The notes: a model not told the origin generated them from the sequence alone. A stretch of DNA of 64,000 nt from an uncultured Methanosarcinales archaeon (GCA_964535955.1 CAZHVK010000005.1:62001-126000); one strand, 5' to 3'. Numbered from the stretch's first letter, positions 29,169-62,404 are shown. Made by a program: numbers and translations.

Positions 29169-30869
29169 TTGATAATAAAAAATTTTGGTGAACTAGATAA
29201 AATATTAAAAAATACTTTTAAAAAAATAAGAGATGAAATCCAAAAAGGAGATGGTAAATTAGGCAAAGAGATTAGTAATTTTAAGAAAATTATTGAGAAT
29301 TCAAAAAAATCAATCAATTCTATTGAAAAAAATACTAAAGCATCTCTTAATAATATAGAAAAGAAAACTAAAGATTCTATTCACAATATAGAACTGAATA
29401 CTAAAAATTCTATTAAAGAAGGTGACAAAAAATTATCTGATTTTAAAAAAGAAGTAAATGCATTGAAAAGGTCTCAAAATAAAGTATTGAACGATGCTGA
29501 GAAAAAAATAAGTTCTAAAATAGAGTATGTTAACAAAACAATTGATGGGTTTAAAAAGGATTTTATCAAAGTAGTTAAAGTCATAAAAACAAAATCAATA
29601 AGTCAAGAAGTGTTTGAAAAAAGAATGAAAAATACTGATGAAAACACTAAAAAACTTGCAGTACACATAAAAGAAATAATAGAATTAAGAGATAATCTTA
29701 GTGATATCAAACAAAATAAAAGTATGCTTGCTGAATTAAGTGCAAAAGTAGGTAAATTAAGTGGTACTGCAAATGAAAGTGTTAATGAACTTAAATCTGT
29801 TCAAAGTGGAGTAAAAGAAATTAGTAAAAGAGCTGTTGATAAAGAAGAATTTGATAAAGAGATAAAAGATGTCAAAACAAGATTAGACAATGAACTAAAA
29901 GAAGTAGTAACAAATCTAAAAGAAGTCAATAAAATTAAAGATCTACAGCTTGCAGTCGGAGAAATAAGCAAAAAAGGAGCAAGTGAGGACGAACTAAAAA
30001 AATTGAAAAGTGACCAAGTTGTGATATTGAAAGATTTGAAAGAAGAAATAAGATTAATTAAAAAGGAAGTTGCAACAAAAGATTCTTTAAAAAATGAAGT
30101 AGAAAAACTAAGAGCTCAACTAAAAGAATTGAAAGTAGTTATGAGTGACTGGAACAAAAGAATAAACCAAGAGCTGAAGTTGAAATCTGAAAGCGGGAAA
30201 TTTATGAAGCAGGTTTCTTCTATTTTTGATGAAAGAAAAGAAACAAAGATTACTGAAAAAGAAGAGATTGAATTAGATCTTAAAGAGATGGAAGAAGTAG
30301 AACAAAAGCCAGGCGTACTCAAAAAAGCTGTTGATGGAATTGTTGATTTCTTTGTAGAAGATGAAGATGAGATTGTAGAGGAGGAAATAAGAAAAATTGA
30401 AGAAGTTAAAAAAAAAGCAAAACCTAAAGCGATAAAAACTAAAAAAGAAAAAAAAGTTAAAAAGAGACAGCCAAAAATTGAAATAATAGAAGAGATTGCA
30501 CAAATAGAAAAGGTTGAGGAAGAGAAGGAAGAGAAAGAAGATAAAGAAAGAATGACAAGAGATGGCCCAGGAGTATTAACAAAGATGAAAGATGGGATGG
30601 TTAATTTCTTTTTTGAGGAAGTAGACGAAGCAGCTGAAGAAGAATTAGAAAGAAAAAAAGAAAAAGAAGAGGCAAGTAAAAGAAAAATGGGTTTGGAAGT
30701 GTATGAAGCTGGAACTAGACTAGGAAAAGGCGGAAAAAAGAAAACAAATGGTTCTAGTGCTAAAGGGAGAAAAACAGGCAGTAAAAAGTTTAAAAAATTA
30801 GATAAAGATACTTTTGTAGATGATTTTGGAAAAGAAACAACTTATTATCCTGAAGATTATTTTTATTGA
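29169..30869 (+). CDS. Long coiled-coil protein with two amphipathic PGVL..FF repeats and aromatic C-terminus
   Basis: TTG start with GAGGAGG RBS; heptad-rich K/E/I/L sequence; PGVLKKAVDGIVDFF and PGVLTKMKDGMVNFFF; ends YYPEDYFY. Confidence 0.8.
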   Translation: MIIKNFGELDKILKNTFKKIRDEIQKGDGKLGKEISNFKKIIENSKKSINSIEKNTKASLNNIEKKTKDSIHNIELNTKNSIKEGDKKLSDFKKEVNALKRSQNKVLNDAEKKISSKIEYVNKTIDGFKKDFIKVVKVIKTKSISQEVFEKRMKNTDENTKKLAVHIKEIIELRDNLSDIKQNKSMLAELSAKVGKLSGTANESVNELKSVQSGVKEISKRAVDKEEFDKEIKDVKTRLDNELKEVVTNLKEVNKIKDLQLAVGEISKKGASEDELKKLKSDQVVILKDLKEEIRLIKKEVATKDSLKNEVEKLRAQLKELKVVMSDWNKRINQELKLKSESGKFMKQVSSIFDERKETKITEKEEIELDLKEMEEVEQKPGVLKKAVDGIVDFFVEDEDEIVEEEIRKIEEVKKKAKPKAIKTKKEKKVKKRQPKIEIIEEIAQIEKVEEEKEEKEDKERMTRDGPGVLTKMKDGMVNFFFEEVDEAAEEELERKKEKEEASKRKMGLEVYEAGTRLGKGGKKKTNGSSAKGRKTGSKKFKKLDKDTFVDDFGKETTYYPEDYFY

Positions 30870-31027
30870 GTTTATAGAATTAAAAAAATATAAAGAATAA
30901 ATACACAATAAAAAAAGAGGCAAAAACTAATAAGAATAAATTAATTAAAAAAAAGAATAAAAAAAGACAAAACAAATATAAAAATACAAAATAAAATATA
31001 AAAATAAAAAATTGAAAAAATAATTAT

Positions 31028-34000
31028 TTATCTTCTTTTTCTTTTCTTTGGTTTTTTAGATTTTCCAGAGGTTATTATCAATACTAAATAAACAATAATC
31101 AAACCACAGAGGGCTCCAACTAACCAATATAACCACAGATAAGGTGATCTTTCTTTTGGTGGCCCTAGTTCATCTTTTACTGCTTCACCTGTAACTCCTG
31201 GTTCTGTTGGTTCTGATTCTTCAATTTCTTCTGTTTCTTTCTCTGGAACAGTTATTGCAAAATAACTAAATCCAGGTGTTGTTGCCATATAATATAAATA
31301 TTCATCAGATTCATCACCTGCATCTTCTACTGCTGTATCTTGTGCTGTGGTCAATGTTACCCAAGATGTTTTATATCTTCTCAATCTTACATCTTCTGGT
31401 TGTGCACCTTTTTCTTCTAACCAAGACTTTTTAACTTTAAACCTTATTATAATGTTGTCTATATTCTCTTCTTTAAGATTTGTATTGTCGACTGATAAAT
31501 ACTTATAAACTTCTGCAGATGGTACTGAATCTTCTAACTTTGCTGGCTGTTGTTTAAATGATCTTACTGTAACTGTTACTGAACTTAAATCAGTAAGTGC
31601 TTTAAACTCTATTTTAGTTATTGGAATTATTTTTCCTTTAATATGCACCTTCTTAATAGTGTCTTTTCCAATCTTATCAAAACCCACTTGTACTGATTCA
31701 TCTACTTCTTTTTCTTTTGCAAGTCCTCCACTAGTGGATGTGCTAGAAGAACCACCACTAGGGCTGGTTACTACTGCTGCTGCTGGTGTAGTTGTTGTTG
31801 AAGTTGAATAAACTGAAAACCCTAGACCAAATGATATGGGAACTGTCCAAGTTGAAGAATCATCATCATATGCTGTTCTTTCAACACCTGTTTGGTTTGT
31901 TACATCTACACAATTAGTCAGATTATCTTCTTCACAATGCCATAAATTATTTCCTGTTAAAGGAACTGTTAAATGTATTTCTTCTGCACCCATGTTTTGC
32001 ATCATTCTCTTGAATTTATCACTTCCCATTCCTATGAATTCATTTTTGTCACTATCATTAGTTGTATTATACTTAAATTCACCACTCATGTTTCCCATTG
32101 GTTTTGATCTTTCTGTTGAAGTAGTTGTTTGAGAAGTTATTGATTCTATTAGATCTATGTTTTTAAGTTCAATTGCCCATTTTTCTGTTGAATTAAGGTT
32201 TGTGAATCTTATTGTTGAATTCTTACCATCTTTATAACTTACCTTAGTACCATATTCCATTGAATCATTCTCAATATCCCAAATACCATCACTAATATTA
32301 TAATCAACACTAAAATACATATTACCTGTTGCATTACTTGTGTTTAATTCTGTTAATGAATCAAATTTAGGAGCAATAGTGAAATTACATTTTGGACAAT
32401 CATCTTCACTTTCACTTGCTTTTGTTGTAAAATTAATACAACCTGATTTTGCCATGTTTCCACTTGGGTCAAAAGTAGCTATCTTATATGCATAAGTTCT
32501 ATTAGGGACCAATGCAAAACCTAAATTTTCTTTATCTAACATAAATCCGTGATGTGTATGAAATTTAGTGTCATGCATTGATTGGTTAATGCTTGCTTCT
32601 GCACCACAAGCTGCATTTTCTCCATAAAACTCTAAAGTTGCATTTGCAGGTTTGTTTTCTGTTAAACTAACCTTAACAGTATCTGGGAAAATATTCTTTT
32701 TATGCAATACTATTGAAGGTGCTGTCTTATCATCATCTCTGGCAACTAAACCAGTGCCACAGAAAAAGATATCATATTTACAGCTTTCATCAAAACAATC
32801 TGTTTTTCCATCATTATCATTGTCAATACCATCTTTACATCCTGGTCCTTCTTCCATTGGAATAAATCCATATTTTTTAAAGTCTTGACAATCTGGGTCA
32901 TTTTCAGAATCAAATCCATCACCATCAAGGTCTTGGCCAGGTGCAAAACAATCTTCCATTTTAAAATCAAATGCACCAGGTGTATAATATGATGGTCCAA
33001 TAGTATCAACTGGTGTTGATTCATTTGTTCCATTACCTGCTACCACTGCATAGATTCTCATATTTTGTGTATCATTATATAAGTTTTTGAATCTTTTTAA
33101 TGCTTCTTTGTCAGCACTAACCATTCCACCTTTTAACATTGAACACATTTGTTGTTTCCATGATGACAATCCAATTGCAGCTGGACCAAAATTACCACCT
33201 ACACATTGATAAGCTACTCTTGATTCAACAACTTCTGAACCTGCTAATTCTCCAAGATATTTAAATTTGAATTCAAATCCTGTCTGATCACTATCATCTG
33301 AAGTACAACCATTTGTTGTATTACCATCTGTATCTAAGTACCAAAAGAATTTAGTAGCGTTTCCACCACTACCAGTTGTACTAAAATCAGATAAGATCAT
33401 TCCATTACAAATAGCTGCATCATTTATACTTCTTACACCAATACCAAATCCAAATGATGTAGGATTATCTTTTACACCAAAGAACATAATATCTGTGTAA
33501 GGGTCTGCTGGTTCTCCTGATGCAGGATAAATTAGATCTGTACCTAAATCTACTGGAGGACCACCTTCCATTCCTGAAAACATCTGCATCTCAAACATTC
33601 CATTACACCATCCTAATTCTAGTGCATCTTCAGATGAATTATGGAAATTTAGATCAGGTGTCCATGTACAAGCACTGTTATTCATACAACCTGTTGCATT
33701 ACCATCATTGTCAGCACAATTTCCTCCAAATGAACCTGGTTCACAAAATCCTGATTGTGTTTGACATGCACCTGCTCCTTGTCCTGCTTCTGTCCCAATA
33801 CAATCAGCTGAATTTAAACTAAAACAAGATGGTTCACAACGGCCACCACCACCAGGAGCAAATGGATCTTGCATCCAAGTACAATTACTATCTTCTCCAC
33901 ATCCTGCTGGATCATCAAAATAAGCATCATGACATCTAAACATCCTAAAATCACAATGACCAAATCCACCATATGCATCTCTTTGCCATATACAATTTGT

Positions 34001-36019
34001 TGATTGATTACATGCATTACTGTCCATATTAAAACATGATTCACTCAATGTCATGTTAATATCACATGCTCCACCAGGTACATCTTTCCAATTACAATCA
34101 GAAATTGTATCACAACCTGTTTCATTTTCATTAAATTGCCAACATTGTTCACTTGGATGACCACAATGACCTCCTGCACCATATTTAAGATCAAATTCAT
34201 CTTTTATCCATGCACAACCACCTGTTGAACAAGCACTGGCATCTATGTATTGACCACAGTCATTTTGATCAAGGAATTTTCCACCACAAAAATGATCAAA
34301 TCCACAGTCAGGGTCATCACAATCTATCTTATTATCATTATCATTGTCTGAACCATCAAAACAAATTTCTCCATCATATCCTGATGGCATACAAATATAA
34401 TTATTATTATCCCATTCACATGCTCCTGGTGTTCCTTTGCCATAAGCAGTACATTCTGATGAATCATAACATGAAAAACAATCATTTGCACAATATTTTG
34501 CACTTTTATCTTCACACCATCCATAGTCTCCGCTTGGATCAACTAACCACTTACATCCTGCACTACTACTATTACATTTTCCAGAAGCATTTTCTAAGAA
34601 ATCACAAGATGAACATTCAGAGTCACAACTTTTTCCTCCACCAAACATCATATTAAATTTCATATCACACCAGCCCATGCCATTAAATGCATTTGTGTCT
34701 TCATGAAATTGACAAAATCCTAGTGTAGAATTTTCACATGCTGATCTTGCACATGTTGTATCTCCTGCTGTACAATCTGTTCTTGCTTTATCTTCACATG
34801 ACCAACACATTTCATTACATCCTTCAATACCTGTACCAAATCCACCAAAACCCATTTCACACCATGAATCTGTGTCTGTTTTTTGGTTTCCATAAGAATC
34901 TGCATATTTGAATGTTTCTGTTATCCATGAACCACCTGTTGCTTCACATGATTCTTGTGAACCAATATCATCAAAAAATCCAGGACCACCACCACCAAAT
35001 ACACCTTCTTGATTAAATGTACATTTTGCTCCATCCCATTGGCATGGTTTATAATAATTTGTTATAGCTTGTTCACATAAAGATTGGTTTGTACCAATAC
35101 CTTCACAACTAAGATCTAAACTACCCATATCTGATCTTGATTTACTATTGTTCATAATACACCTAGCCCATGCAGGAGCAGATGCATTCCATGAACACAT
35201 TGTATTAAGTTTAGGAACCCTTTCACAAAATCTTGAATCTGTAATATTATTACATAGAATTCCTACATTAGATGTATGACTCCAATTAGTGACATCAGGA
35301 CTACAATCTTCTGTTCCAGAATTCCATTCACATACAGTAATGTTTGCACAATTAGAATTTCCTTCAAATTCAGAACATTCAACCATTCTCATACCACCAC
35401 CACCTGCACTTCCTTGCTGTGTATTTGTATCTTCTTCACATAATGAAGAACCCCAATTCCACATACATGGTTGACCATTTTGTTGTGCTTGTTCACATTG
35501 TGCTTGGGTTGTAAGTGCATAACAACCTGTTGTTGGAGGATCTCTAAAAGTAGTAGAACCACTATTTTGTATTTCATATTCTATAATTACTTCATCTTGT
35601 CCTCCATTTATAGAATTTATAAAAATATTTACATAAGTACCATTTGAAACATATGCTGTTAAGCCATCACCTAATTGACAAATTGGAAAACCTACTGATG
35701 AATAACCTGACCATGAACCTCCTAATGCAGGAATAGTATATGTATTGTTTAAATCAACATTAGGTCCAATGCCTCTTATATATCCATTTGATGGAATTAA
35801 TGCTAAATCATAAGGACCAGAACAACCAGATACGCCTGTACTACTTTCCAAAGTAATATCATATCCTGCTGAAACTGCTGTTTCAGTTGTAAAATTAAAA
35901 CCATTCCCATCTTTTGTCAATGTTACAGAACCCTGTACAAGAGCACCAAATGCAAATTGGCACAAAACAAATAACATAATTAGACTTATATTTAATAGAA
36001 TTAAATTTCTTAACCTCAT
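31028..36019 (-). CDS. Cys-rich secreted membrane-anchored surface protein with PGF-pre-PGF domain (1,663 aa)
   Basis: Signal peptide; many C..(C)xW modules; DGxDNDxDxKxDCxDxxC Ca-binding-like motifs; 'VYKYL', 'FKVKKSW', 'TPGFSYFAIT'; C-terminal TM plus basic tail. Confidence 0.88.
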   Translation of the reverse strand: MRLRNLILLNISLIMLFVLCQFAFGALVQGSVTLTKDGNGFNFTTETAVSAGYDITLESSTGVSGCSGPYDLALIPSNGYIRGIGPNVDLNNTYTIPALGGSWSGYSSVGFPICQLGDGLTAYVSNGTYVNIFINSINGGQDEVIIEYEIQNSGSTTFRDPPTTGCYALTTQAQCEQAQQNGQPCMWNWGSSLCEEDTNTQQGSAGGGGMRMVECSEFEGNSNCANITVCEWNSGTEDCSPDVTNWSHTSNVGILCNNITDSRFCERVPKLNTMCSWNASAPAWARCIMNNSKSRSDMGSLDLSCEGIGTNQSLCEQAITNYYKPCQWDGAKCTFNQEGVFGGGGPGFFDDIGSQESCEATGGSWITETFKYADSYGNQKTDTDSWCEMGFGGFGTGIEGCNEMCWSCEDKARTDCTAGDTTCARSACENSTLGFCQFHEDTNAFNGMGWCDMKFNMMFGGGKSCDSECSSCDFLENASGKCNSSSAGCKWLVDPSGDYGWCEDKSAKYCANDCFSCYDSSECTAYGKGTPGACEWDNNNYICMPSGYDGEICFDGSDNDNDNKIDCDDPDCGFDHFCGGKFLDQNDCGQYIDASACSTGGCAWIKDEFDLKYGAGGHCGHPSEQCWQFNENETGCDTISDCNWKDVPGGACDINMTLSESCFNMDSNACNQSTNCIWQRDAYGGFGHCDFRMFRCHDAYFDDPAGCGEDSNCTWMQDPFAPGGGGRCEPSCFSLNSADCIGTEAGQGAGACQTQSGFCEPGSFGGNCADNDGNATGCMNNSACTWTPDLNFHNSSEDALELGWCNGMFEMQMFSGMEGGPPVDLGTDLIYPASGEPADPYTDIMFFGVKDNPTSFGFGIGVRSINDAAICNGMILSDFSTTGSGGNATKFFWYLDTDGNTTNGCTSDDSDQTGFEFKFKYLGELAGSEVVESRVAYQCVGGNFGPAAIGLSSWKQQMCSMLKGGMVSADKEALKRFKNLYNDTQNMRIYAVVAGNGTNESTPVDTIGPSYYTPGAFDFKMEDCFAPGQDLDGDGFDSENDPDCQDFKKYGFIPMEEGPGCKDGIDNDNDGKTDCFDESCKYDIFFCGTGLVARDDDKTAPSIVLHKKNIFPDTVKVSLTENKPANATLEFYGENAACGAEASINQSMHDTKFHTHHGFMLDKENLGFALVPNRTYAYKIATFDPSGNMAKSGCINFTTKASESEDDCPKCNFTIAPKFDSLTELNTSNATGNMYFSVDYNISDGIWDIENDSMEYGTKVSYKDGKNSTIRFTNLNSTEKWAIELKNIDLIESITSQTTTSTERSKPMGNMSGEFKYNTTNDSDKNEFIGMGSDKFKRMMQNMGAEEIHLTVPLTGNNLWHCEEDNLTNCVDVTNQTGVERTAYDDDSSTWTVPISFGLGFSVYSTSTTTTPAAAVVTSPSGGSSSTSTSGGLAKEKEVDESVQVGFDKIGKDTIKKVHIKGKIIPITKIEFKALTDLSSVTVTVRSFKQQPAKLEDSVPSAEVYKYLSVDNTNLKEENIDNIIIRFKVKKSWLEEKGAQPEDVRLRRYKTSWVTLTTAQDTAVEDAGDESDEYLYYMATTPGFSYFAITVPEKETEEIEESEPTEPGVTGEAVKDELGPPKERSPYLWLYWLVGALCGLIIVYLVLIITSGKSKKPKKRKRR

Positions 36020-36079
36020 TTTTTCAAACCCCTCATTTTTTATTTTAATATTTTAATTAAAATAATGATATATATTTTT

Positions 36080-36136
36080 ATTGATATAAGATATATATAT
36101 ATATCAATGATGGTTTAAGGCAAAGTTATATATAAA
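36080..36136 (-). promoter_or_regulatory. TATA box with ATTGATATA-N11-TATATCAAT inverted repeat near the start site of the 1,663-aa gene
   Basis: Inverted repeat at 36080-36108; TTTATATA on - strand at ~36129-36136. Confidence 0.5.
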
Positions 36137-36282
36137 TTTAACTGAGAATTTGAAAAAAAAGAATGAAAATTAGAAAAAATTAAACAAATAAAGAAAAAAA
36201 TAAGAAAGAAAAGGAAACAAATAAAAAATATAAAATACAAAAATAAAAAACATAAAAGAAAAAAAGATAAGAAAAAAAAGAT

Positions 36283-37374
36283 TTATTCTTCTTCTTCTGG
36301 TTTCTTTTTAACAACAAAGAAATATATAATCAATCCAACTATTATAATGATTCCTGCGATTAACCAACCAACCCATGTTATAATTACCTCTTTACAATCT
36401 TCTGGGCAATTGTCAACTGTTTCACCTTGTTCACAAATGTCATTACCACAAACAGGTTCTTCTGGTTCTGGTGGTTGTTCTGGTGGTTCTATTTTTTTTT
36501 CTGCTAGTTTTGTGTATTTTAGTTCTGCTTTTCCGTATTTGATTGATAATAAGTTTATCTTAAGGTCTGCGTGTCCATCATCATTAAGGTCTACTTCAGA
36601 TGAACTTCCTACTTGTATTGTGATCACTTTGTCACCTACTTTTAATACCACATAATCATCTGCTACTTGGTCAATCTTTATCAAATAGTCAGTGCCATCT
36701 AATGTCATTGAAACACTCTCTCCTTTTTTCTGTGTCAAGATGATTCCTTCATAAAACTGGTCACCAAATTCGTCAAGGTCTTCTGCATCTGATACTGTTA
36801 CAACTGCTCCTGCAGCTCCTGAACTAGTTGTTGAGCCACCTCCTCCAGTACTTGCTGCTGCTGCAGCTGTTACTGGAACACCACAATCTGTTCTACATAC
36901 ATTTTCAGATTCAGTACATGAATCTGCTGAACCTCTTGTTTCTAAACCATTACATGTTCCGTCACCACAATATGTTGCACCTGATGCTATTGTTAAGTCT
37001 AATGTTGTAACTTGTCCTCCTGTCCATGTGCTTGTATTAGAAGATTCTGCACATCCAAGAAAAAAGGTGATTGTGTCTCCTGTCAAGTCTTCATCATTGC
37101 TTCCTTGGACTGGAAGATACATTGGTGGTAATGATGATATATTTCCATAATAACCTGCTTCTGTTATAACAATAGTTGAACCTGTTCTATAAGTCCCACC
37201 AACTCTAGCTGAAATAGATGCACTTACTGCTATATCTGTTGAGCCTGCTTTAGCTGTTCCTGTAAAACTATGTGGAAAGGGTGGAACAGATAATACAAAA
37301 AATGAGAATATAATTAAAAAAATGAGCATGATAGTTGAATTTAGAATCAATTTATTATTTATTTGTTTCTTCAT
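36283..37374 (-). CDS. Secreted membrane-anchored protein with Cys-rich CGxxxCxxxE repeats (363 aa)
   Basis: Signal peptide; 'CGDGTCNGLET' and 'CGNDICEQGETVDNCPEDC'; C-terminal TM followed by KKK; RBS GAGGG. Confidence 0.85.
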   Translation of the reverse strand: MKKQINNKLILNSTIMLIFLIIFSFFVLSVPPFPHSFTGTAKAGSTDIAVSASISARVGGTYRTGSTIVITEAGYYGNISSLPPMYLPVQGSNDEDLTGDTITFFLGCAESSNTSTWTGGQVTTLDLTIASGATYCGDGTCNGLETRGSADSCTESENVCRTDCGVPVTAAAAASTGGGGSTTSSGAAGAVVTVSDAEDLDEFGDQFYEGIILTQKKGESVSMTLDGTDYLIKIDQVADDYVVLKVGDKVITIQVGSSSEVDLNDDGHADLKINLLSIKYGKAELKYTKLAEKKIEPPEQPPEPEEPVCGNDICEQGETVDNCPEDCKEVIITWVGWLIAGIIIIVGLIIYFFVVKKKPEEEE

Positions 37375-37468
37375 ATTGTTTCCCTCGTTAAAATTAAAAA
37401 AATGTTAAATTAAATCAAATCAAAACATAAATAAAAATAAAAAAATTGGAAGATTTGTTTATCTTCCT

Positions 37469-40400
37469 TTATCTTCCTGAACCACTAGGTAGTAAACTTC
37501 TACTTGTTGCGTCTTCTCTAATATGTATCCAATAACCTGTTCCTTTTATTAATTCTTTTGTTTCTGTTGTTGATCCAACTGTTGAAGTATATGCTAATCC
37601 TGTCCAGTCATAAAGATATGACCATGTTGGTGTTGTTGTTGCTGTTGTACTTATTAATGATGCTAATGAATCAATTGCTGCTCCACTAGATATATTGTTA
37701 AGTCCAATCATGTTCCATCCTGTTGATAATGTTCTTGCTGTTGGTGTTGGCATTGTTCTTGATACATCTAATGCACTTGTAATTGGTGCAAAATATGCTT
37801 TTTGTGATGTGTTTACTTTCATTGCATATCCTTTTAATGGTTCCATTGTTGTTGGAATTTCCCATGCATCGCTTGTATCATTGTACCAATATACTGTTTG
37901 GTATGTTACTCCTTGTAATGCACTTGAAACAGCTGTGTTTCCTAATGTCAATGGTACTGAGATCAAGTCCCAACCTTGTCCACTGTTTCCACCTGTAACA
38001 TTTACAACAATGTTTATTACTGCATAATCTGTTATATTATTTGTTGTTGTACCATCTATTTGTGTATCTTCATACCACATTGCAACTGTATCTCCTTGTC
38101 CTGCATTTACTGCATTTATTGAGTGTCCTGTTCCTGGAGTTTCAACAAATGAAATTGTTAAGTTACTAAATATACCTGTGTTTGCTCCTGTCTCTGATGT
38201 TGTAAATGATGTGTGTGTTGTGCTTTCGTCTGAGTTATACATAACTGTTACTGTATCAACAGCGTCATTATCAGTGTTTGCATCATAATCAACTATTGTA
38301 AAATTTCCATTGCTTGTTGCTGTTTCTGTTACATTATAATCATTGCTAGCAAATACTGCTGTTGATGCTGTATAATAACCAACTTGTTGTTCTAATATTG
38401 GTTCTGGATTTGCACCACTAGAACCATTTAATGTTGGATCATAGTAGACATATATATATTGTTCAATATTACTTGAATCTACATATATTGAATCTGCATC
38501 TCCTGCTGATGTACTTACATCATAAGTAACTGTATAGACACCTGTGTTTGCACCTGTTTCATTTCCTGATAATAATGTTAATGTTGAATTTGTTGTTGAA
38601 TTAACTTTAATTTCTATTGTATCTGCTGCTGAAGCATTGGAATTATTACCAGCATCATCTACTGTGATAAGATAAGTTTCTGCACCTGTTGTTGGTATAA
38701 ATCTTGTTGCATTTATTGTTATTGTTTGTGTATCATTACCAACTGTTGCTGTTACTGTTTTCCATGTACTATCTGTTGCATCTAAGTAATGTGCTTTTAT
38801 CCATCCACCTGCTGTTACATTCAAATAATAATAATCATTACCACTCATATTATGATATGATCTATTTGTTTCAGATGAACTTAATGTAATATTAAGAGGA
38901 CCGTCATCTCTTGCAACAGATGTACTAAACACACCAGTTATTGCATTTGTTCTATTCAATGTAATATTAATTCCAGCCTCATACTCACTACTATTTAAGA
39001 TAATTGTAGTCATATTTAGTTGTGTTGCATTATCATTATCTGTTACAGTAATCACAACATTATCATTATTCAAATGATAAATATTTTTATTCAATGTGAT
39101 TGATCCTGTTTCTTGTAGATCAACTGTTTCAAACACTACTGCAGGATCTGAGCCATCAAATCCTTTGTTATCATTGTACATAATTTGTATGGTATCTCCT
39201 TCATCTACATATAATGTGTTTGTATCTCCATCTGAAGCTAATAATGAAAATGTTAAATTTGCAAATGTAGTAGATGAACAACTTACAAGTGCATCTCTAA
39301 ATTCTCCTGAATCTACATTTGTTTCATTTAGACCCATGTTAAATCCTGTTGGATCTGATGTAGAGTTAACTGTTACTGTTACACATTGACTAGTTACATT
39401 ATCAGTGTTTTTACCAGCATCTGTTAAATTAAAAAACATACTGCTTGAAATAGTAAATGTAGTTGAAACAGCTCCTGGTGCATCTGTTATATTCATTCCA
39501 CCATTTTGATCCATCCAAGCTGTTATTGATGAGGTAACTGTTGTTCCTGTTGCATCTGTATAATTAATATAAATCACATCTCCTGCTGATACATTCAGTG
39601 TGAAATTATCATTTGAGAAAAGAGATGAATATACTGATGCATCTCCAAATATTAATCCACCTGTTGCATTAGGTATTGAAAACACTGATGAATCTGCGCT
39701 TGTTGCTGTTCCTGCTTCATTTGATTCATTCAATTGAACAGTGATTCCTTCTTGTCCTAATCCTATACTTGTAGTTGATTCAACTGTTATACTTGCAAAT
39801 TCAATTGCACTTGCATCTGTGTTTAAATCACTATCATTTACTTTAATCAAAATACTATCTCCAGTACCAAATGCTTGTCCAGACCAATTAAATGATAATA
39901 CACCAACATCATGGACATCTAAGCTGATAGGTCCTAACTGAGGTGTTAAATCTGCATCAGGAGTATCTCCTGAAAAGTTTGACTGATCATTGTATGTTAT
40001 ATTTATGAATCCACCATCTCTTGACATTATTTGTAAATTTGTTCCACTCCAATAACTAGTACTTAGAGAAGATGAAGTGTTTGCAAATAATGTAGTTCCA
40101 TTCAAAGCAAAAGTACCTGTGTTTGCAGCTGTTTCATTCATTCCAACTATCATGCTTCCTAATGAGTTCCAATTCACATCATAACTAGTTATGGTCAGGT
40201 ATGCTGCATTATTATCAATTGCAGAATAATCTAAATTAGTTCCATTATCATATACTGTAAATATATCTCCAATTCCTGTTGAATTATCAGGATCTAGTTC
40301 TGTTGTTGCGCCTGCTACTAAGTATCCTAATGAATCTACCCAGATTAAGTCACTTGCTATTACTGAATTTCCATCAAAATCAGTATCAAGATAAGACATG

Positions 40401-41218
40401 TTTATGTTATCACCTGAAACAACTTGTAATTCATTTGTGTTATCATTGATTCCAGTTGTGTTGAGATTAAAAAGATAATTTGTTGCATCTTCACCAGCAC
40501 AAGCAACTTGTGTATAAACTGGACTGTTCACTGTTGATTCATTTAAACAAATACTAATATTAAAAAATGATGAAGTATTAACATTAATAATTACTTGTTG
40601 TGTTGTAAGTGGATCTGTATCAATACCTGAATCATTATAACCAATTCCAAAAACACTTGTTGCAGCTGTATCAGAAATATAAGTAGATCCTGTGTTTAAT
40701 GTTCCTGTTCCACCACTTAACCAATATAAAACACCTGTTTGCTGCATAATGACTGTATCTGAAACAGTGCTATAAGTTGCAGTAATTACTTCTTGTTTGT
40801 GTGGATTATTAGTCACTTTAATTGAATAATTAGTATAATCTGTTCCGTCTGCTGGCATTGATGAAACAACAGTTGAAACATTTATACATTGCATTGCATT
40901 AAATGGAAAAGAACCATTCACTAATATATTAAAAAAGTCAGAAGCAACATCTGTCTCATTCAATGTTACAAGAATTCCTGTTGAATTAGTTGTTGAAGTC
41001 AAAGTAACATTGACCTGTTCAACAACAGTATTACTTTGTCCATCAACTGACAAATTCAATTTTATACAATCATCAGAAGTCAAAGGACTACTCCTTGATT
41101 TATCTGCATAAGACGAGTCTGTTATGTTAATATAAGTTGTAACAGCAGAAACAGAAAAAGCCATAAAAGCCATTAGTATTAATAAACTCACAAGTAATAT
41201 ATTTGTTTTTTTTACCAT
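37469..41218 (-). CDS. S-layer-like secreted glycoprotein with repeated Ig-like modules
   Basis: Signal peptide from ATG 41218 (MVKK, after GAGGTG RBS). Repeated D.d.N.d...d.i.v.v.S.....i.lNETg.NTG.F units, dense N-x-S/T sequons, acidic Thr/Ser-rich. C-terminal GWDLISVPL..GWNMIG..GYWI domain; no C-terminal TM. Confidence 0.75.
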   Translation of the reverse strand: MVKKTNILLVSLLILMAFMAFSVSAVTTYINITDSSYADKSRSSPLTSDDCIKLNLSVDGQSNTVVEQVNVTLTSTTNSTGILVTLNETDVASDFFNILVNGSFPFNAMQCINVSTVVSSMPADGTDYTNYSIKVTNNPHKQEVITATYSTVSDTVIMQQTGVLYWLSGGTGTLNTGSTYISDTAATSVFGIGYNDSGIDTDPLTTQQVIINVNTSSFFNISICLNESTVNSPVYTQVACAGEDATNYLFNLNTTGINDNTNELQVVSGDNINMSYLDTDFDGNSVIASDLIWVDSLGYLVAGATTELDPDNSTGIGDIFTVYDNGTNLDYSAIDNNAAYLTITSYDVNWNSLGSMIVGMNETAANTGTFALNGTTLFANTSSSLSTSYWSGTNLQIMSRDGGFINITYNDQSNFSGDTPDADLTPQLGPISLDVHDVGVLSFNWSGQAFGTGDSILIKVNDSDLNTDASAIEFASITVESTTSIGLGQEGITVQLNESNEAGTATSADSSVFSIPNATGGLIFGDASVYSSLFSNDNFTLNVSAGDVIYINYTDATGTTVTSSITAWMDQNGGMNITDAPGAVSTTFTISSSMFFNLTDAGKNTDNVTSQCVTVTVNSTSDPTGFNMGLNETNVDSGEFRDALVSCSSTTFANLTFSLLASDGDTNTLYVDEGDTIQIMYNDNKGFDGSDPAVVFETVDLQETGSITLNKNIYHLNNDNVVITVTDNDNATQLNMTTIILNSSEYEAGINITLNRTNAITGVFSTSVARDDGPLNITLSSSETNRSYHNMSGNDYYYLNVTAGGWIKAHYLDATDSTWKTVTATVGNDTQTITINATRFIPTTGAETYLITVDDAGNNSNASAADTIEIKVNSTTNSTLTLLSGNETGANTGVYTVTYDVSTSAGDADSIYVDSSNIEQYIYVYYDPTLNGSSGANPEPILEQQVGYYTASTAVFASNDYNVTETATSNGNFTIVDYDANTDNDAVDTVTVMYNSDESTTHTSFTTSETGANTGIFSNLTISFVETPGTGHSINAVNAGQGDTVAMWYEDTQIDGTTTNNITDYAVINIVVNVTGGNSGQGWDLISVPLTLGNTAVSSALQGVTYQTVYWYNDTSDAWEIPTTMEPLKGYAMKVNTSQKAYFAPITSALDVSRTMPTPTARTLSTGWNMIGLNNISSGAAIDSLASLISTTATTTPTWSYLYDWTGLAYTSTVGSTTETKELIKGTGYWIHIREDATSRSLLPSGSGR

Positions 41219-41397
41219 TTTTAAATCCACCTCATTTTTTGTTCCATTTGGAATTTTATAGTTTTTCTAGTAAATAGAGCTATTTTCAACTCTCTTAACT
41301 AATTTTTTTACTTTTTCAAACTTCTTACAAGTTTTCATAAGTTAAATTTTACCCCTCAAACCCTATATCAGTGATTTGAGACTCTTTTTAATTTTTG

Positions 41398-41460
41398 ACC
41401 AATATAATAAGTATATTGGTTTAAATGTATATCAACGCATGTTAGTATTTAAAGCTTTTG
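41398..41460 (-). promoter_or_regulatory. Putative promoter of the S-layer-like gene with ACCAATATA-N5-TATATTGGT inverted repeat
   Basis: CAAAAGCTTTAAATA on - strand (~41446-41460); perfect 9-bp inverted repeat at 41398-41420. Confidence 0.55.
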
Positions 41461-41542
41461 TTTTTGAGCTTGTTTTTTTGATTAAAAACAGGTTTGTTTT
41501 GCTTTTTAAACATGCTTGGTTTTTTGATTTTTTTACTCAAAA

Positions 41543-41671
41543 TAAGACTTATTTTGTCTCATTTGTGTCTCAATAAGTCTCATTTTTGTTTGATTTTGTC
41601 TTAATTTTGTCTCAGTTTGTATATCTTTTTTGTCTCAATGAGTCTTTTATAATCTGATACTAGTTTGAGAC
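41543..41671. repeat. Helically phased GTCTCA array
   Basis: GTCT(C/T)A at 41556, 41567, 41577, 41598, 41609 and 41632, plus GTCTTT at 41642. Inverted copies at 41543, 41666 and 41377. Confidence 0.85.
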
Positions 41672-42258
41672 TTTATCACTATAATCTTTACATCATTGAT
41701 ATCAATTATGTCTATCAGGTTTCTTTTTTTAAGTTCTTCAAAGTAACGATAAAATGATGCTTTTGAACAATAATTATTTTCATCAACAATAATGTCTTTT
41801 ATCTCTGGCAAAGTGTATTGACCTGATGAAATTACATTAAGAATTTTTTGTTTTATAACTGGTTTTTTATTTCTTTTTAGACGACGCATTATTTCTGTCT
41901 GTAATCCTCTGTTTGAATGTTGTATAGGTCGCTGTATTTGCTGCTGCATAGGTTGTTGTATTTGTTTTTGCATTGATTGCTGTATTGGTTGCTGTATTGG
42001 TTGCTGTTGATTTATAGTCGGTGTTTTGGATTGTGATGAAATCTTTTTTAAAGAAGAATTCATGGTTTTTAATAAGGATTTTATCTGTTTTAATTCTTTA
42101 GATAATGTTGAGATTTCAGTGTTTAGTTTATTTATGTTTTTAGAATTGGATTCAAGTTTGTCTGAATTCAGAGTTATGTCTTGTTTAATCTTTGAGAAAG
42201 TTTTCTTTAGAACTGTCTTTAGCAATTCTAATTCTCCCCTATCACCAGTTTTCTGCAT
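41647..42258 (-). CDS. Coiled-coil / Gln-Pro linker / winged-helix DNA-binding protein
   Basis: N-terminal coiled coil, (Q/R)PIQ-type 4-aa repeats, C-terminal 'KQKILNVI....YTLPEIKDII......CSKASFYRYFEELKKRNLIDII' with a wHTH pattern. Confidence 0.75.
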   Translation of the reverse strand: MQKTGDRGELELLKTVLKKTFSKIKQDITLNSDKLESNSKNINKLNTEISTLSKELKQIKSLLKTMNSSLKKISSQSKTPTINQQQPIQQPIQQSMQKQIQQPMQQQIQRPIQHSNRGLQTEIMRRLKRNKKPVIKQKILNVISSGQYTLPEIKDIIVDENNYCSKASFYRYFEELKKRNLIDIIDINDVKIIVIKSQTSIRL

Positions 42259-42332
42259 TATATAATATTTATTCTTTTATATTTATAAATGTTGTGCAAA
42301 TTTTTATATATAATAGAATAAAAAAGACTAAT

Positions 42333-42686
42333 ATGATTATTAATTTAAGTAAAAAAGAAATAAATCGTATAATTGTTCATAAAAAAAGATTATTAACCAA
42401 TGTATTTAGTCAAGGAACTGGCCTATTATTTAGAAGAAAATTAAAAGATAAAGGTTATGTGTTTGTTTTCAGAAAAGAACATATAATTGGCATAACAATG
42501 ATTTTTGTTTTTTTTTCTATTGATGTCTTGTTTTTGGATAAAGAGAAGAGAGTTGTTGAAGTTGTTGAGGGTCTTAAACCTTTTAAAAATTACTGGCCAA
42601 AGAAAAAAGCAAAGTATGTTGTTGAACTGCCTAAAAATACAGTAAAAGAGAAAGAGATTAATGTTGGAGACAGATTGCAATTCTGA
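42333..42686 (+). CDS. DUF192 family protein
   Basis: 'QGTGLLFR', 'ITMIFVFFSIDVLFLD', 'LKPF', 'AKYVVELP', 'VGDRL'. Start moved to ATG 42333. Confidence 0.85.
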   Translation: MIINLSKKEINRIIVHKKRLLTNVFSQGTGLLFRRKLKDKGYVFVFRKEHIIGITMIFVFFSIDVLFLDKEKRVVEVVEGLKPFKNYWPKKKAKYVVELPKNTVKEKEINVGDRLQF

Positions 42687-49756: not shown

Positions 49757-49790
49757 AATTATTATCTTAAATTATATCTTAATGTTTATT

Positions 49791-51526: not shown

Positions 51527-51568
51527 AGTATAGAAATATTTAAATAAGACTTTTCCTAAATAATAAAT

Positions 51569-51943: not shown

Positions 51944-51958
51944 AAAAAATAAAAAAAC

Positions 51959-53131: not shown

Positions 53132-53224
53132 TTTATTCACCTCTGTATGTTTTAATACTGTAATATTAATATCTTAAATTAGGGTTTATAAAGACTTAGA
53201 GTGAGAATTTGGTAAATTAGAAGT

Positions 53225-54739: not shown

Positions 54740-54770
54740 ATTTTATATTGAAATAGGATAACATATATAA

Positions 54771-55934: not shown

Positions 55935-55949
55935 GTTGATTCTATCATT

Positions 55950-56417: not shown

Positions 56418-56431
56418 TTTTGATTACCTCC

Positions 56432-56860
56432 TCATTCATCATGAATACTTTGCCAATATCTATCCCTCTCACCTTTAACAATGAGTCTCCACTTTGATCT
56501 CTTTACAAATTTTATTCCAGATTTTTCTGCTGCATGTTCCCATTTTTTTATTTCATCTTCTAAAGGTAAATTTACATCAGAATCACCACAAAAACGAGGA
56601 TAAATTATTTTTTTACCAAATGCTGTGAAATAAATACCATCTTCAGTACAAAGAAATCTTTCAATCACAAAATCTTTCAAAATATCTGTAATCTCTTCAG
56701 GAGTTTTATATTGTTTTTCTATGTTTTTACCATCTTCTTTACAATACTTACCTATATCTTCTAATTCATATTTTGTTTCACATTTACTGCAAACTGCAAA
56801 TTGTGTTCTAACATCTTTAATAATCCTTCTTACGCAATATAGTGTGTCATATTCTGCCAT
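56432..56860 (-). CDS. Hypothetical zinc-ribbon protein
   Basis: GGAGGT RBS before MAEYD; 'CSKC...KYCKEDG'. Confidence 0.65.
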   Translation of the reverse strand: MAEYDTLYCVRRIIKDVRTQFAVCSKCETKYELEDIGKYCKEDGKNIEKQYKTPEEITDILKDFVIERFLCTEDGIYFTAFGKKIIYPRFCGDSDVNLPLEDEIKKWEHAAEKSGIKFVKRSKWRLIVKGERDRYWQSIHDE

Positions 56861-56979
56861 CTTCATTACCTCCACCATCACCTTAACAAGATTGTAACTA
56901 ATTCTAATAAATAAACTAATTGATTGATATCTTTGTAAAGTAGAAAGATTTATATATTATTTGTTCTTACCCACATAAT

Positions 56980-57927: not shown

Positions 57928-58018
57928 GTTCTATTTTACAAAAATTCTGATTTGAAATTTTATATGTTTGATCAACTTACTAATATTAAAAGAGTTCTTG
58001 ATAGAAGAGGATAAAAAA

Positions 58019-59725: not shown

Positions 59726-59779
59726 ATTATATATTTTATGAGAAACCTTTTTATACTAATAATCTATAAAATAAAGAAT

Positions 59780-60289
59780 ATGGATTATACATTAATAATA
59801 AAAGCATTGTATTTCATGCTTCCTGCTTATTTTGCAAACATGGCACCTGTTCTTACTAAAAATCATTTTAAGAAATTAGCTATTCCTGTTAATGCAAAAC
59901 TATTCGGTAAAAATAAAACATGGAGAGGATTTATATCAGCCATCATATTTGCAATGATAATTGCATTTATACAGCAATGGATTGGTTGGAACAGTATTAT
60001 TGATTATTCTAAAGTCAATATATGGTTATTAGGGTTTTTATTAGGCTTTGGTGCAATGTTTGGTGATAAATTAGAAAGTTTTTTTAAAAGAAGAATCGGT
60101 ATCCCTCCTGGCAAACCATGGTATGTTTTTGATCAATTGGATTTTCCATTAGGTGCAATGATGTTTGCTAGTTTTATTGTTCCATTTACATGGATTGATT
60201 TTACAATTATTATTGTTGGCACTTTTGTATTGACTGTTTTGGTCAATCATATCAGTTATTGGTTAGGTATAAGAAAGGTGTGTTGGTAA
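59780..60289 (+). CDS. carS: CDP-archaeol synthase
   Basis: 'LPAYFANMAPV', 'FG.NKTWRG', 'GD..ESFFKRR.GI.PG', 'DQLDF', 'NHISYWLG.RKV.W'. Start moved to ATG 59780. Confidence 0.9.
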   Translation: MDYTLIIKALYFMLPAYFANMAPVLTKNHFKKLAIPVNAKLFGKNKTWRGFISAIIFAMIIAFIQQWIGWNSIIDYSKVNIWLLGFLLGFGAMFGDKLESFFKRRIGIPPGKPWYVFDQLDFPLGAMMFASFIVPFTWIDFTIIIVGTFVLTVLVNHISYWLGIRKVCW

Positions 60290-60292
60290 AAG

Positions 60293-61264
60293 ATGATAGA
60301 CTTACTTATGTGGATAGGGATATTTCTTGTCAGTATGCTTGTTTTGATAAAAGCATCTGATTATTTTACTGATTCTGCTGAAAAGATAGGTTTATGGTTT
60401 GGTATGCCTGCTTTTATTGTAGGTGTTACAATTGTTTCTATTGGAACTTCATTACCAGAACTGATATCCTCTATTATCTCTGTATTAAATAATTCATCTG
60501 AAATCGTGATTGGTAATGTGCTTGGTTCTAATATTACAAATATATTCCTTGTTTTAGGAATTACTGCAATCATTGCTGGAAAATTAGAAATCTTCTATGA
60601 ATTAATACATGTTGATCTGCCAATGTTAATGGCTTCTGCATTTATTGTTGGTGTTATGCTTTGGGATGGAACTTTTACAAGAGGTGAAGCTGTAATATGT
60701 ATTGCTGGTTATATTCTTTATTTACTTTATACTCTTTCAACTTCTAAAGGTGATAAAGAGATTAAAAAAGAAACAAAGAAAATGATGAAGAAAAAACCAA
60801 AAATAGGCTTTAAAACAATTTTTGTTCTTATCATAAGTGGATTTTTTATTTTCTTAGGTGCAAAATACACTGTTGATTCTGTTATACAAATATCTGAAAT
60901 GCTAAATATTGGAAAAGAAATAATTGCCGCTAGTGCAGTTGCATTAGGTACATCATTACCTGAATTAATGGTAAGTATAACTGCTGCTAGAAAAGGTAAG
61001 CCAGAGATGGCTGTTGGTAATGTGCTTGGATCTAATATATTCAATGCATTTGCTGTAATGGGTATTCCAACATTGTTCGGAACATTGATTATCCCTCAAA
61101 ATATGTTAACATTTACACTTCCATTAATGTTAGTGTCAATGATGATGATATCTTCTTTCTTGTATTATTTTATTACTTTAGACAAAGAAATCACTAAATG
61201 GGAAGGGTGGATATTGATAATATTCTATGTATTCTTTATATGTAAATTATTTAATTTAGTGTAA
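60293..61264 (+). CDS. Calcium/sodium antiporter (CaCA, YrbG-like)
   Basis: Two alpha repeats 'GTSLPEL...GNVLGSNI'. Confidence 0.93.
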   Translation: MIDLLMWIGIFLVSMLVLIKASDYFTDSAEKIGLWFGMPAFIVGVTIVSIGTSLPELISSIISVLNNSSEIVIGNVLGSNITNIFLVLGITAIIAGKLEIFYELIHVDLPMLMASAFIVGVMLWDGTFTRGEAVICIAGYILYLLYTLSTSKGDKEIKKETKKMMKKKPKIGFKTIFVLIISGFFIFLGAKYTVDSVIQISEMLNIGKEIIAASAVALGTSLPELMVSITAARKGKPEMAVGNVLGSNIFNAFAVMGIPTLFGTLIIPQNMLTFTLPLMLVSMMMISSFLYYFITLDKEITKWEGWILIIFYVFFICKLFNLV

Positions 61265-61739
61265 GAAAAGGATAAAATGCATAATAAAGAACAAGTGTAC
61301 TTATGAAGAACCAAATATAATTTAATATTAAAAGTTTAATTATCTGTAGGTTGTTTTTTTTAATGTATTTGTTTCTTAGATTAATTGAGATGAATATTGT
61401 GTATATTAATAATAATGAAGAAATTATTAAAAATTGTGATTGATTTTGTGTGCTTAAGTAAAAAATAACTGATAATAATAAATAACTTAAAATTCCTTTT
61501 AGTTTCATTTCAAGAAAATAAAAGACTAATATTGTTAATGTGATTAATATATGTACTGTGTTTTGTTTGAAAAAAATTAAACTGAAGAATATTATTAAGT
61601 AAAAAGTAATATGTTTTGTTACTTTAAAATAAAATTTACCTGGTTTTAGTTCTTCTGGTGAAATTATTGTTAAAAGTAAACCTATGAATAAACCTAATGT
61701 GATTATTAATGATGTTAGGGTGTATATTATGAATTGCAT
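61251..61739 (-). CDS. Hypothetical membrane protein
   Basis: Several TM helices and 'SPEELKPGK.Y'; ATG immediately after the upstream stop codon (apparent translational coupling). Confidence 0.7.
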   Translation of the reverse strand: MQFIIYTLTSLIITLGLFIGLLLTIISPEELKPGKFYFKVTKHITFYLIIFFSLIFFKQNTVHILITLTILVFYFLEMKLKGILSYLLLSVIFYLSTQNQSQFLIISSLLLIYTIFISINLRNKYIKKNNLQIIKLLILNYIWFFISTLVLYYAFYPFLTLN

Positions 61740-61740
61740 T

Positions 61741-61983
61741 TTATTTCCACCCAGAATGACCAAACTGAATCAATAAATCAATATCTTTTACTTCAGGGAT
61801 ATCACAAGCACCAAAACATGAGCCTAACCAAGTGATTACTTTAGCATTTGTCTTACTTTCTATATCTTTTTGTATTTGTTCTGCTTTTGGTTTTAGACCA
61901 TCTGGTAATTGGATTAAGACTGTTTTAGTGTGTTGTTTATTGATTTCAGTGATTACTTTGTCTAATTCTAGATTATAGTTCAT
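61741..61983 (-). CDS. dph2: Stand-alone N-terminal domain of diphthamide biosynthesis enzyme Dph2
   Basis: 'VLIQLPDGLK', 'SCFGACD', 'DLLIQFGHS'; only 80 aa, with intact start and stop. Confidence 0.85.
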   Translation of the reverse strand: MNYNLELDKVITEINKQHTKTVLIQLPDGLKPKAEQIQKDIESKTNAKVITWLGSCFGACDIPEVKDIDLLIQFGHSGWK

Positions 61984-62037
61984 TATTTTAGAAGATTATT
62001 AAGGATATTTATAAAAGTAACTTAATTTAGAATAGGT

Positions 62038-62184
62038 TTATTCACCTTCATGAAGGTCAATATCATTCATAAGAACATCTAATTCAAATTCATTTAATTT
62101 TTCTTTATTTAATAATGCTTTTAGATCTTTCTTTTTAACACTTTCTTCTTTCTTTTTCTTCTTGATCTGTTCTTTAACAGCCAT
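62038..62184 (-). CDS. Microprotein, 48 aa (not in ORF track)
   Basis: Manual translation MAVKEQIKKKKKEESVKKKDLKALLNKEKLNEFELDVLMNDIDLHEGE; ATG one base after the upstream TGA. Confidence 0.6.
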   Translation of the reverse strand: MAVKEQIKKKKKEESVKKKDLKALLNKEKLNEFELDVLMNDIDLHEGE

Positions 62185-62185
62185 A

Positions 62186-62404
62186 TCACTTACGTCTATC
62201 ATTTTCTAACTCTTGAACTCTTTGTTCTAGTTCTTTAACTTTATCTAATAATATTCTTTGATTATTGATTATTATAGAAAACCATTCAAAAGCATAGTTT
62301 TTAAAACTTTCTATGTCTTTTTTAACTTGTCTAAATGATTTAACAACTTTTCTTTTGAAACCATTTTTACCAAATAAGTATTTATTGATGATTTCCATTG
62401 CCAT
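62186..62404 (-). CDS. Small coiled-coil protein (72 aa) with SFxQVKxDI motif
   Basis: AGGTG RBS; 'VVKSFRQVKKDIESFK...LLDKVKELEQRVQELE'. Confidence 0.7.
   Translation of the reverse strand: MAMEIINKYLFGKNGFKRKVVKSFRQVKKDIESFKNYAFEWFSIIINNQRILLDKVKELEQRVQELENDRRK

Follow-up and report, generated by a model that had tools for sequence, protein, structure and literature searches.

Three open reading frames (ORFs) in a stretch of archaeal DNA begin with what appears to be one and the same short motif, and the question raised by this locus is whether their products form one family and whether they serve one system. The stretch analysed, referred to here as the window, is 64,000 nucleotides long (G000:C5:62001-126000, given as genome, contig and positions) and belongs to a genome of 1.49 Mb with 29.7% GC. 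A first-pass annotation had read the three proteins, here A, B and C, as a candidate DNA-membrane tethering or segregation system in which a DNA-binding adaptor (B) and a membrane scaffold (A) are joined through the common N-terminal motif, with the small protein (C) as a regulator. The ORFs are listed below with their lengths in amino acids (aa); the N-terminal segment which carries the motif is called the head.

29169..30869, plus strand: protein A, 566 aa, with head, proline-free rod, two hydrophobic FF.EE patches and C-terminal YPEDYFY
29202..29240, plus strand: head motif of A, ILKNTFKKIRDEI, residues 12-24 (translation)
41647..42258, minus strand: protein B, 203 aa, with head, short coiled coil, Q-rich linker and C-terminal winged helix
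42175..42213, minus strand: head motif of B, VLKKTFSKIKQDI, residues 16-28 (translation)
62186..62404, minus strand: protein C, 72 aa, a head-only mini-protein
62312..62347, minus strand: head motif of C, VVKSFRQVKKDI, residues 20-31 (translation)

The coordinates and translations reproduced all three motifs, and the starting observation of three ORFs with one N-terminal motif (SF..VK.DI in common) was borne out. Our verdict is that the head marks a modular family which is both real and new, and that a centromere-like locus belongs to it. What is new at this locus is that the orthologues of B adjoin a composite DNA element in which GTCTC sites are phased at about 11 bp and, in 10 of 13 genomes, flank origin recognition boxes (ORBs) of the Orc1/Cdc6 type. 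Our best explanation is that A, B and C belong to one undescribed superfamily with a common coiled-coil head which is specific to Woesearchaeales-type DPANN archaea. The head would be a common pairing or docking end and the C-terminal end would carry the cargo function, namely DNA binding through a winged helix in B, membrane attachment through a transmembrane segment or FF.EE patch in A and the other long-rod proteins (rods), and nothing in C. B would coat the phased GTCTC array beside its own gene to give a unique centromere-like or operator-like nucleoprotein site. We give this explanation as a whole (superfamily, head pairing or docking, modular tails and B on the array) a probability of about 0.55.

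No match above curated cut-off was obtained for A, B or C in Pfam, NCBIfam, PADLOC or PHROGs, where only sub-threshold coiled-coil noise was seen (with PADLOC and PHROGs, weak similarity to SMC arms or tape-measure coiled coils). Homologues in the databases bore no other name than 'hypothetical protein', of Candidatus Woesearchaeota or Nanoarchaeota. G000 encodes at least five head proteins, which are A, B, C, a 179-aa winged-helix paralogue on contig C2 and a 292-aa one on C10. A YF.KF..VE tag carried by three proteins on contig C7 was considered and rejected as unrelated to the head motif.

The alternative to be weighed first is chance likeness due to the Lys/Ile/Asn-rich composition of a 30% GC genome, as the three-way regular expression had been fitted to the three sequences themselves. 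On a 20-column profile made from the N-termini of 15 winged-helix proteins, A obtained 15.7 bits; no other ORF outside the training set scored as high among the 6,079 of G000, and the maximum in 30,395 shuffled ORFs was 11.4 bits. C, at 10.5 bits, fell inside the shuffle range. The motif is also conserved in orthologues. Ten B orthologues, B included, were found at E ≤ 0.01 in a set of 5.8 billion proteins and keep K25 and D27 together with a nearly invariant F21 and I24, and a search with B of 41 relatives gave matches in 25 (paralogues counted in). Orthologues of A were found in 5 of the 41 relatives (G000-G003, G016) and in G145, with N5, F6, E8, L9, D10, L13 and F17 of the head invariant in 5/5 sequences. 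Homologues of C were present in 20/41 relatives at E ≤ 0.1, with 11 loci below 1e-3.

Profiles from which one class had been left out still retrieved that class across genomes. A profile of C-type proteins only (32 sequences) matched the N-termini of winged-helix proteins, including the B orthologues of G037 (6.6e-10) and G021 (8e-5) and the C10 paralogue of G000 (6.5e-5), and in a ranking within G000 it placed that paralogue third and B fourth (E 0.049). A profile without the rows of the A family found the rods of other genomes at 4e-8 to 2e-3 in 10 of 11 cases (0.18 for L066), among them L059, the A orthologue of G145, at 1.1e-6. For the window's A, this profile gave a match only with scoring confined to the first 70 residues (E 0.0056, rank 4 of 1,538). 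Composition-corrected profiles missed the window's A or B once close relatives were removed, a point in favour of chance likeness. With 55-column profiles and the composition correction of HMMER, full-length A was unlisted at E ≤ 1000 once the A family was left out, and B stood at rank 39 (E 4.4) once its congeners were removed. A profile of nine B-orthologue N-termini ranked C at 156 and A at 4,440 of 4,478 scored ORFs; without composition correction the same profile ranked A at 4 (E 0.011). The statistics for the window's A and B thus lean on their orthologues and on uncorrected or N-terminal-only scoring. Set against this are the conservation in orthologues, the shuffle control, the cross-class retrieval and the fixed N-terminal position of the motif, and chance likeness is hardly credible and close to refuted. 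The proposal that the motif is a homologous module common to different architectures was upheld by the profile searches and by the cross-class similarity of the heads described below; judged by these profiles, the head is homologous across A, B and C, with the window's A and B supported through their orthologues.

Of the 151 genomes of the order, 131 had matches at E ≤ 0.01, one to five in each, to the joint head profile (A3, with A, B and C among its sequences); this tally includes the unpublished G114, G123 and G134. Among the 150 matches listed, 39 frames were of at most 110 aa, 98 were of 111-360 aa and 13 were longer, and there were 128 further matches to the joint profile outside these 150. 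Searched against 1.84 billion representatives, the head profile gave 332 clusters at E ≤ 1e-3, the best 150 of the 332 being mostly of 54-80 aa. In a sample of 251 genomes of the phylum, 89 (a tally that includes the unpublished G328) had matches to the C-only profile, and in 'same class' genomes outside the order these matches lay at the N-termini of 130-265-aa frames.

Four architectures were recognized: head-only mini-proteins; head, coiled coil and winged helix; head, long rod and FF.EE patch; and head, long rod and transmembrane anchor. Twenty long open frames were fetched from the listed matches, and in 17 of them the head was N-terminal, within about the first 40 residues; L067, counted among the 17, has its match beginning at residue 128 of an open frame whose true start is uncertain. 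The match was internal in two of the remaining frames (L064, L076) and absent at E ≤ 1 from L062. C-terminal transmembrane segments were found in 5/17 (L060, L066, L070, L072, L073), three of which have a short extracytoplasmic, partly Cys-rich tail after the segment. An FF.E patch like that of A, with no transmembrane segment, was present in four (L059, L061, L065, L074), while L060 has both. Five of the 17 carried a B-type winged helix (E ≤ 1e-29), and three (L063, L068, L071) had no transmembrane segment, patch or winged helix. The suggestion that the long-rod members are membrane-linked is supported by these five transmembrane segments and four more FF.E patches.

Outside the head, proteins of different classes could not be aligned. 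Over 22 head positions the mean BLOSUM62 score was 33.4 for B-type proteins against rods, 34.6 for rods among themselves and 29.1 for B-type against C-type proteins, after four C-type sequences with fewer than eight residues before the motif had been dropped. No description of the head family or of the element beside B was found in full-text searches of the literature, supplements aside.

Two further findings concern other genes with parts of this kind. A two-gene pair recurs at G000:C10:26118-27624 (minus strand) and in L012, L067, L069 and L077. Its first gene encodes a head protein that ends in a winged helix and has a conserved Trp, and its second a protein of about 180 aa (178 aa in G000), here called 'INENT', with the N-terminus F..I+.EF.DHL.AINENT.EI and a weak match to HTH_11 (E 9e-4). 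At G000:C9:43645-43827 (plus strand) a 60-aa ORF lacks the SF..VK.DI part of the C module but was matched by the C-only profile (E 9.8e-5) over the latter half of that module (W.NFL...coiled coil).

C had been described as the shared module alone, and this description held: it was modelled as a single helix over residues 13-71 with a predicted local distance difference test score (pLDDT) of 97-99 (107 sequences). As C is one long modelled helix, the simplest view of the motif is that a coiled coil starts there. By inspection, the conserved residues follow an unbroken heptad pattern, with the assignments F24 a, V27 d, I31 a, F34 d, W41 d, I45 a, Q48 d, L52 a and L59 a. In the head consensus, (E)L..LK.SF..VK.DI..LK, the positions from S onwards are S g, F a, V d, K e, D g, I a, L d and K e, this last K being five residues after D. 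In this inferred register, the spacing from D (g) to K (e, +5) is the usual salt-bridge (g-e') spacing of parallel coiled coils. PDB profile searches with the head returned only natural and designed coiled coils, an ESM Atlas search with C gave a best score of 0.89 (viral hypotheticals), which is under the useful range, and a search for longer proteins with the C profile returned one generic coiled-coil protein.

Such results also fit common ancestry alone, according to which the head is a coiled-coil initiation or trigger segment and each protein homodimerises with no cross-talk, B being a local DNA-binding factor, A a membrane-skeleton protein and C a protein of unrelated role together with its acidic neighbour. 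The plain heptad pattern and the single helix of C are in line with this, as are the generic coiled coils among the PDB matches, the location of the genes, which are unlinked and in housekeeping contexts, and the existence of B orthologues without a head. It accounts less well for the non-core S, K and D, which are kept across classes that have diverged beyond alignment, or for the motif being always at the extreme N-terminus, since a mere trigger site would presumably not need such constancy between classes. The retention of the same non-core residues in otherwise unalignable classes points to a common constraint, either mutual pairing or a single partner. We consider ancestry alone unlikely, if by no means negligible, and put at slightly short of even the chance that heads of different members pair with each other or share a single partner.

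The features of B and of the DNA beside it are as follows.

41650..41916, minus strand: winged-helix domain of B, last 89 residues; NYCSKASFYRY recognition region; AlphaFold pLDDT 86, H-H-H-H-E-E
41556..41647, plus strand: GTCTCA phased array; about 9 slots, each of about 10.7 bp, filled by 5 exact copies and 3-4 degenerate ones
41242..41253, no strand assigned: mini-ORB-like dyad TTCCATTTGGAA (dyad TTCCAAATGGAAC), invariant across three congeners; after it comes a G-string, GAGGTGG, of the minus strand

The winged helix claimed for B was confirmed as a C-terminal domain in the AlphaFold model. Foldseek comparison of this domain returned proteins of the PadR, Fur, MarR and ArsR types at TM-scores of 0.5-0.63 (best E 7.6e-3), and in Pfam the best hit of B was FUR (E 0.05, 14.2 bits, under the 23.1 cut-off), with no family-level match. 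The phased array that B had been said to abut does lie directly 3' of the gene. Exact GTCTCA copies start at 41556, 41567, 41577, 41609 and 41632 and degenerate slots at 41588, 41598 and 41642, with a phase coherence of 0.91 at period 11 and 0.86 at 10.5. It is the only cluster of at least four GTCTCA sites within 120 bp in the 1.49 Mb of G000 and is kept in two congeners. The dyad resembles the published 13-bp mini-ORB with its core motifs TTCC and GAA (PMC1904270). More spacer blocks invariant in three congeners lie at 41330-41440, for example around TTTGAGGGGTAAAATTTAA and AAGCTCAAAAAC.AAAGCTTTAAATAC, and have no Rfam match; Rfam, tRNA and terminator scans of 41100-42400 gave nothing.

The tie between array and B was conserved beside the B orthologues of 13/13 genomes (G000, G002, G003, G010, G016, G021, G023, G033, G037, G087, G099, G104 and G145). 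An ORB or mini-ORB lies within 450 bp of B at 13/13 loci. Full ORB boxes (TCCAnnnGAAAnnAnGGGG, at most one mismatch) lie within 300 bp at ten of these, in one to three copies, G000 and its congeners being without them. At least six GTCTC/GAGAC sites occur within 150 bp at 11/13 loci (four in G104, three in G099). By comparison, 45 control loci covering 139 kb (8 other winged-helix paralogue loci, 26 C loci and 11 rod loci) contained no ORB and at most three GTCTC sites. The grouping of B orthologues was made on protein and not on DNA; the best eight non-self matches of B (E ≤ 1.5e-16) all have the element and the next three (1e-13 to 1e-11) lack it. In G037 there are 4+4 GTCTC sites at exactly 11 bp, in blocks 99 bp apart across the ORB, and G023 has three boxes. 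ORB matches numbered 2-8 per genome in ten genomes, against 0-3 for a reversed control pattern, and in the complete genome G087 the sole cluster of at least six GTCTC sites is the one at B. The orientation of the B gene relative to the element varies, as expected of a cis site and its binder rather than of a simple promoter operator. B most likely forms a parallel dimer or oligomer, and it is more likely than not that B binds the array.

The neighbours of B encode Memo, DUF192, a methyltransferase, ABCE1, a Lon-like protease and surface proteins. The order Memo, element, B, DUF192 recurs in G033 and G021, while in G000, G016 and G145 the order is Memo or A, large secreted proteins, element, B, DUF192. 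Between A and B in the window (31028-41230, minus strand) are three large genes of 1,663, 363 and 1,253 aa with no Pfam family; since the corresponding proteins of G016 and G145 have segments resembling signal peptides at their start, these are probably surface proteins.

The ORB boxes raise a second alternative, in which the element is a secondary or dormant origin module and B a lineage-specific origin accessory factor that works with Orc1/Cdc6. The analogues would be the Sulfolobus protein UBP at ucm and WhiP at oriC3, and the head would recruit replication or chromatin partners rather than membrane rods. WhiP, with oriC3, is an archaeal origin factor. The existence of lineage-specific origin factors is shown by UBP, an abundant 111-aa nucleoid protein with hundreds of sites, associated with the Sulfolobus ucm motif (PMC12141716). 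Full boxes lie close to B in 10/13 genomes, and such boxes number only 2-8 per genome. In G000, the only Cdc6_C match is on contig C3 while B is on C5, and a strict ORB expression matched nowhere in the genome and thus not near orc1/cdc6 (a loose pattern matched once, on C17); the lack of an ORB near orc1/cdc6 would suit an origin role for the B element.

The skew data do not. The cumulative GC skew of G087 has its turning points near 85 and 595 kb, with cdc6 at 587.7 kb and ORB-like boxes at 580-587.5 kb, whereas the B locus at 868.8 kb is on a monotonic arm with no inflection; B as the main origin was rejected for G087 on skew and cdc6 position. No skew turn was seen at B on contig C5 of G000. 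The ORBs at B loci are moreover direct and not inverted, 5-16 bp apart, with no evident unwinding element between them (AT-richness is uninformative in this respect, the genomes being of 30-40% GC), and the genus of G000 keeps only the mini-ORB, 300 bp away. We conclude that the element is probably not the main origin, and an auxiliary origin function for it is improbable. As an observation in its own right, cdc6 and the ORB-like boxes of G087 at 580-588 kb are at the maximum and not the minimum of cumulative GC skew, so that this position is either on the terminus side or belongs to a genome with a C-rich leading strand.

To return to the reading of the head proteins as modular parts, the membrane side depends on A, whose relevant segments are these.

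30312..30359, plus strand: hydrophobic patch 1 of A, GVLKKAVDGIVDFFVE, hydrophobic moment 0.47, mean hydrophobicity 0.39
30570..30617, plus strand: hydrophobic patch 2 of A, GVLTKMKDGMVNFFFE, hydrophobic moment 0.28; VNF.FEEVD invariant in 5/5 sequences
30846..30866, plus strand: C-terminal YPEDYFY of A, invariant; no other ORF of G000 ends so

A contains no proline in residues 1-380, and both patches and the YPEDYFY end are unique in the genome. Two amphipathic helices had been predicted for A. The two hydrophobic FF.EE patches are present and their mean hydrophobicity is positive, but the hydrophobic moment is moderate (0.47 and 0.28), and that of the relatives' patches is 0.33-0.60. The case for membrane binding by A is strengthened by the relatives with true transmembrane anchors in the same place, and A more likely than not sits at the membrane. 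A and B are 5.1-10.8 kb apart in all five assessable genomes (G000, G002, G003, G016, G145). Elsewhere in the window (2161-19293, plus strand) is a single open frame of 5,710 aa with a purine-rich (AAG/AGA) repeat region at about 17245-18990.

C lies between Rpp21 and a conserved acidic ORF.

62038..62202, minus strand: acidic ORF of 54 aa, just downstream of C, LLNK.kLD.FELD.LMND

The acidic ORF (45-54 aa) was present at 10/26 C-family loci by BLAST clustering and had no family match. Nothing was found to support the role of C as a regulator, and its own conserved small acidic neighbour suggests a separate role. The notion that a single frameshifted gene underlies the three small overlapping ORFs around C was rejected, as orthologues keep C and the acidic ORF separate. 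Two other ORFs were noted here. A 41-aa zinc-ribbon-like ORF (CxxC...CxxC) flanks C at 62382-62507 (minus strand) and has no family match. An 80-aa ORF at 61741-61983 (minus strand) matches only the first 55 positions of PF01866 (diphthamide synthesis) at E 7e-10, and a short gene of this kind, of 78-91 aa, is found at 8/26 C-family loci; as the short form is kept, it may be a stand-alone or split N-terminal piece of Dph2.

How far these parts amount to a system is a separate matter. In the full tether or segregation model, the array is coated by B, whose head zips together with that of membrane-bound A or of other rods, C competes, and the B locus is held at the membrane for segregation with no dedicated nucleoside triphosphatase (NTPase). 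All three kinds of part exist and have the head in common, the heads of B-type proteins and rods are as similar as those of rods among themselves, A and B are linked in 5/5 assessable genomes, and the element has the two-block, 11-bp layout of R1 parC (PMC2241845).

Against this reading, and in part against our best explanation, stand the composition-corrected losses of A and B noted above and several further points. The head was present in 9 of 12 B orthologues with a complete N-terminus and missing from G033 and G099 (by profile) and G087 (by eye only), so the head is not needed for the role of B at the array. No ParA/ParM-type NTPase or motor gene was found among the neighbours of B. Orthologues of A are confined to two families (the 5/41 relatives and G145), for which inherited synteny is explanation enough of the A-B linkage, and rods of other genomes were not near B in the loci examined. 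The FF.EE patches, with their moderate moments (0.28-0.6), central Gly and acidic runs after them, could be peptide-binding motifs and not membrane helices. In-register pairing of A with B would presumably leave one winged helix per dimer, and the acidic neighbour of C again speaks for a separate function. Of the interpretation originally put forward, the module, the tie between B and the array and the membrane-linked rods stood, while the restriction of A, the headless B orthologues and the lack of a ParA/ParM-type gene beside B told against the rest.

On balance a DNA-to-membrane link is plausible, coupling of the B locus to the membrane for chromosome positioning is doubtful, and the complete tether model is no less so. 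Its most ambitious form, a DPANN anchoring kit with no NTPase, in which B polymerises on an ORB-embracing array and docks through its zipper head on membrane rods while C competes, would be a long shot. If true, DPANN archaea would with it gain their first described centromere and tether system, and initiator binding sites would be physically linked to the cell envelope. To speak of a chromosome-organisation system for A, B and C is thus to state a hypothesis.

DPANN archaea have tiny genomes, and next to nothing is known of their chromosome organisation, replication and segregation. What is defined here is a widespread, unannotated superfamily with an N-terminal signature and modular tails (DNA, membrane or none), and a DNA element, unique in each genome examined, in which phased GTCTC sites surround ORB boxes and whose candidate binder is encoded alongside. 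If the heads do pair and B does bind the array, DNA would here be attached to the membrane in a new manner. Should the element be related to an origin, it would answer the question, put in the UBP paper (PMC12141716), of whether archaea of other lineages possess origin accessory factors of their own.

Among known proteins, the PadR, MarR, ArsR and Fur regulators share the fold of the B winged helix but have no N-terminal coiled coil and head. RacA-DivIVA, RocS, Noc and MatP-ZapB are bacterial links from DNA to the membrane or divisome, and the likeness is in the combination of a site-specific DNA binder, a coiled coil and a membrane-associated partner or helix. No relation to these systems in sequence or domains was found, and no Pfam match of A, B or C to DivIVA at E ≤ 1. 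The binder of the RacA type has its helix-turn-helix at the N-terminus, whereas the winged helix of B is C-terminal; RacA, RocS, Noc and MatP have many sites where a single binding cluster per genome is seen here, and those systems are not known to have a shared N-terminal head. Leucine-zipper families with head-only inhibitors, and the helix-initiation motifs of intermediate filaments, offer an analogy of another kind. There too a short conserved coiled-coil segment sits at one end of a rod and paralogues carry different cargo, and as in the zipper families a cargo-less member could titrate the others; there is no homology between either group and the head family.

With its ORB-type boxes beside the gene of a lineage-specific DNA-binding protein, the B locus resembles the archaeal origin factors Orc1/Cdc6-ORB and UBP-ucm (PMC1904270, PMC12141716), and WhiP-oriC3 as well. 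The B element differs from them in that it is neither adjacent to orc1/cdc6 nor at a skew turning point, and the hundreds of sites of UBP contrast with a motif cluster that is unique in the genome. In R1 parC, two sets of five 11-bp repeats surround a 39-bp core and one ParR dimer is thought to bind per repeat (PMC2241845). Two blocks of direct repeats of about 11 bp around a core, beside the gene of a DNA binder, are likewise seen in G037, while G000 has a single block of about 9 slots of about 10.7 bp. The adaptor differs, B being modelled as a winged helix with a coiled coil and not as a ribbon-helix-helix protein, no ParM or ParA gene is adjacent to B, and the core here consists of ORB boxes, not of a promoter, at a locus which is chromosomal. 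By analogy of layout, the element appears closest to R1 parC among the systems compared.

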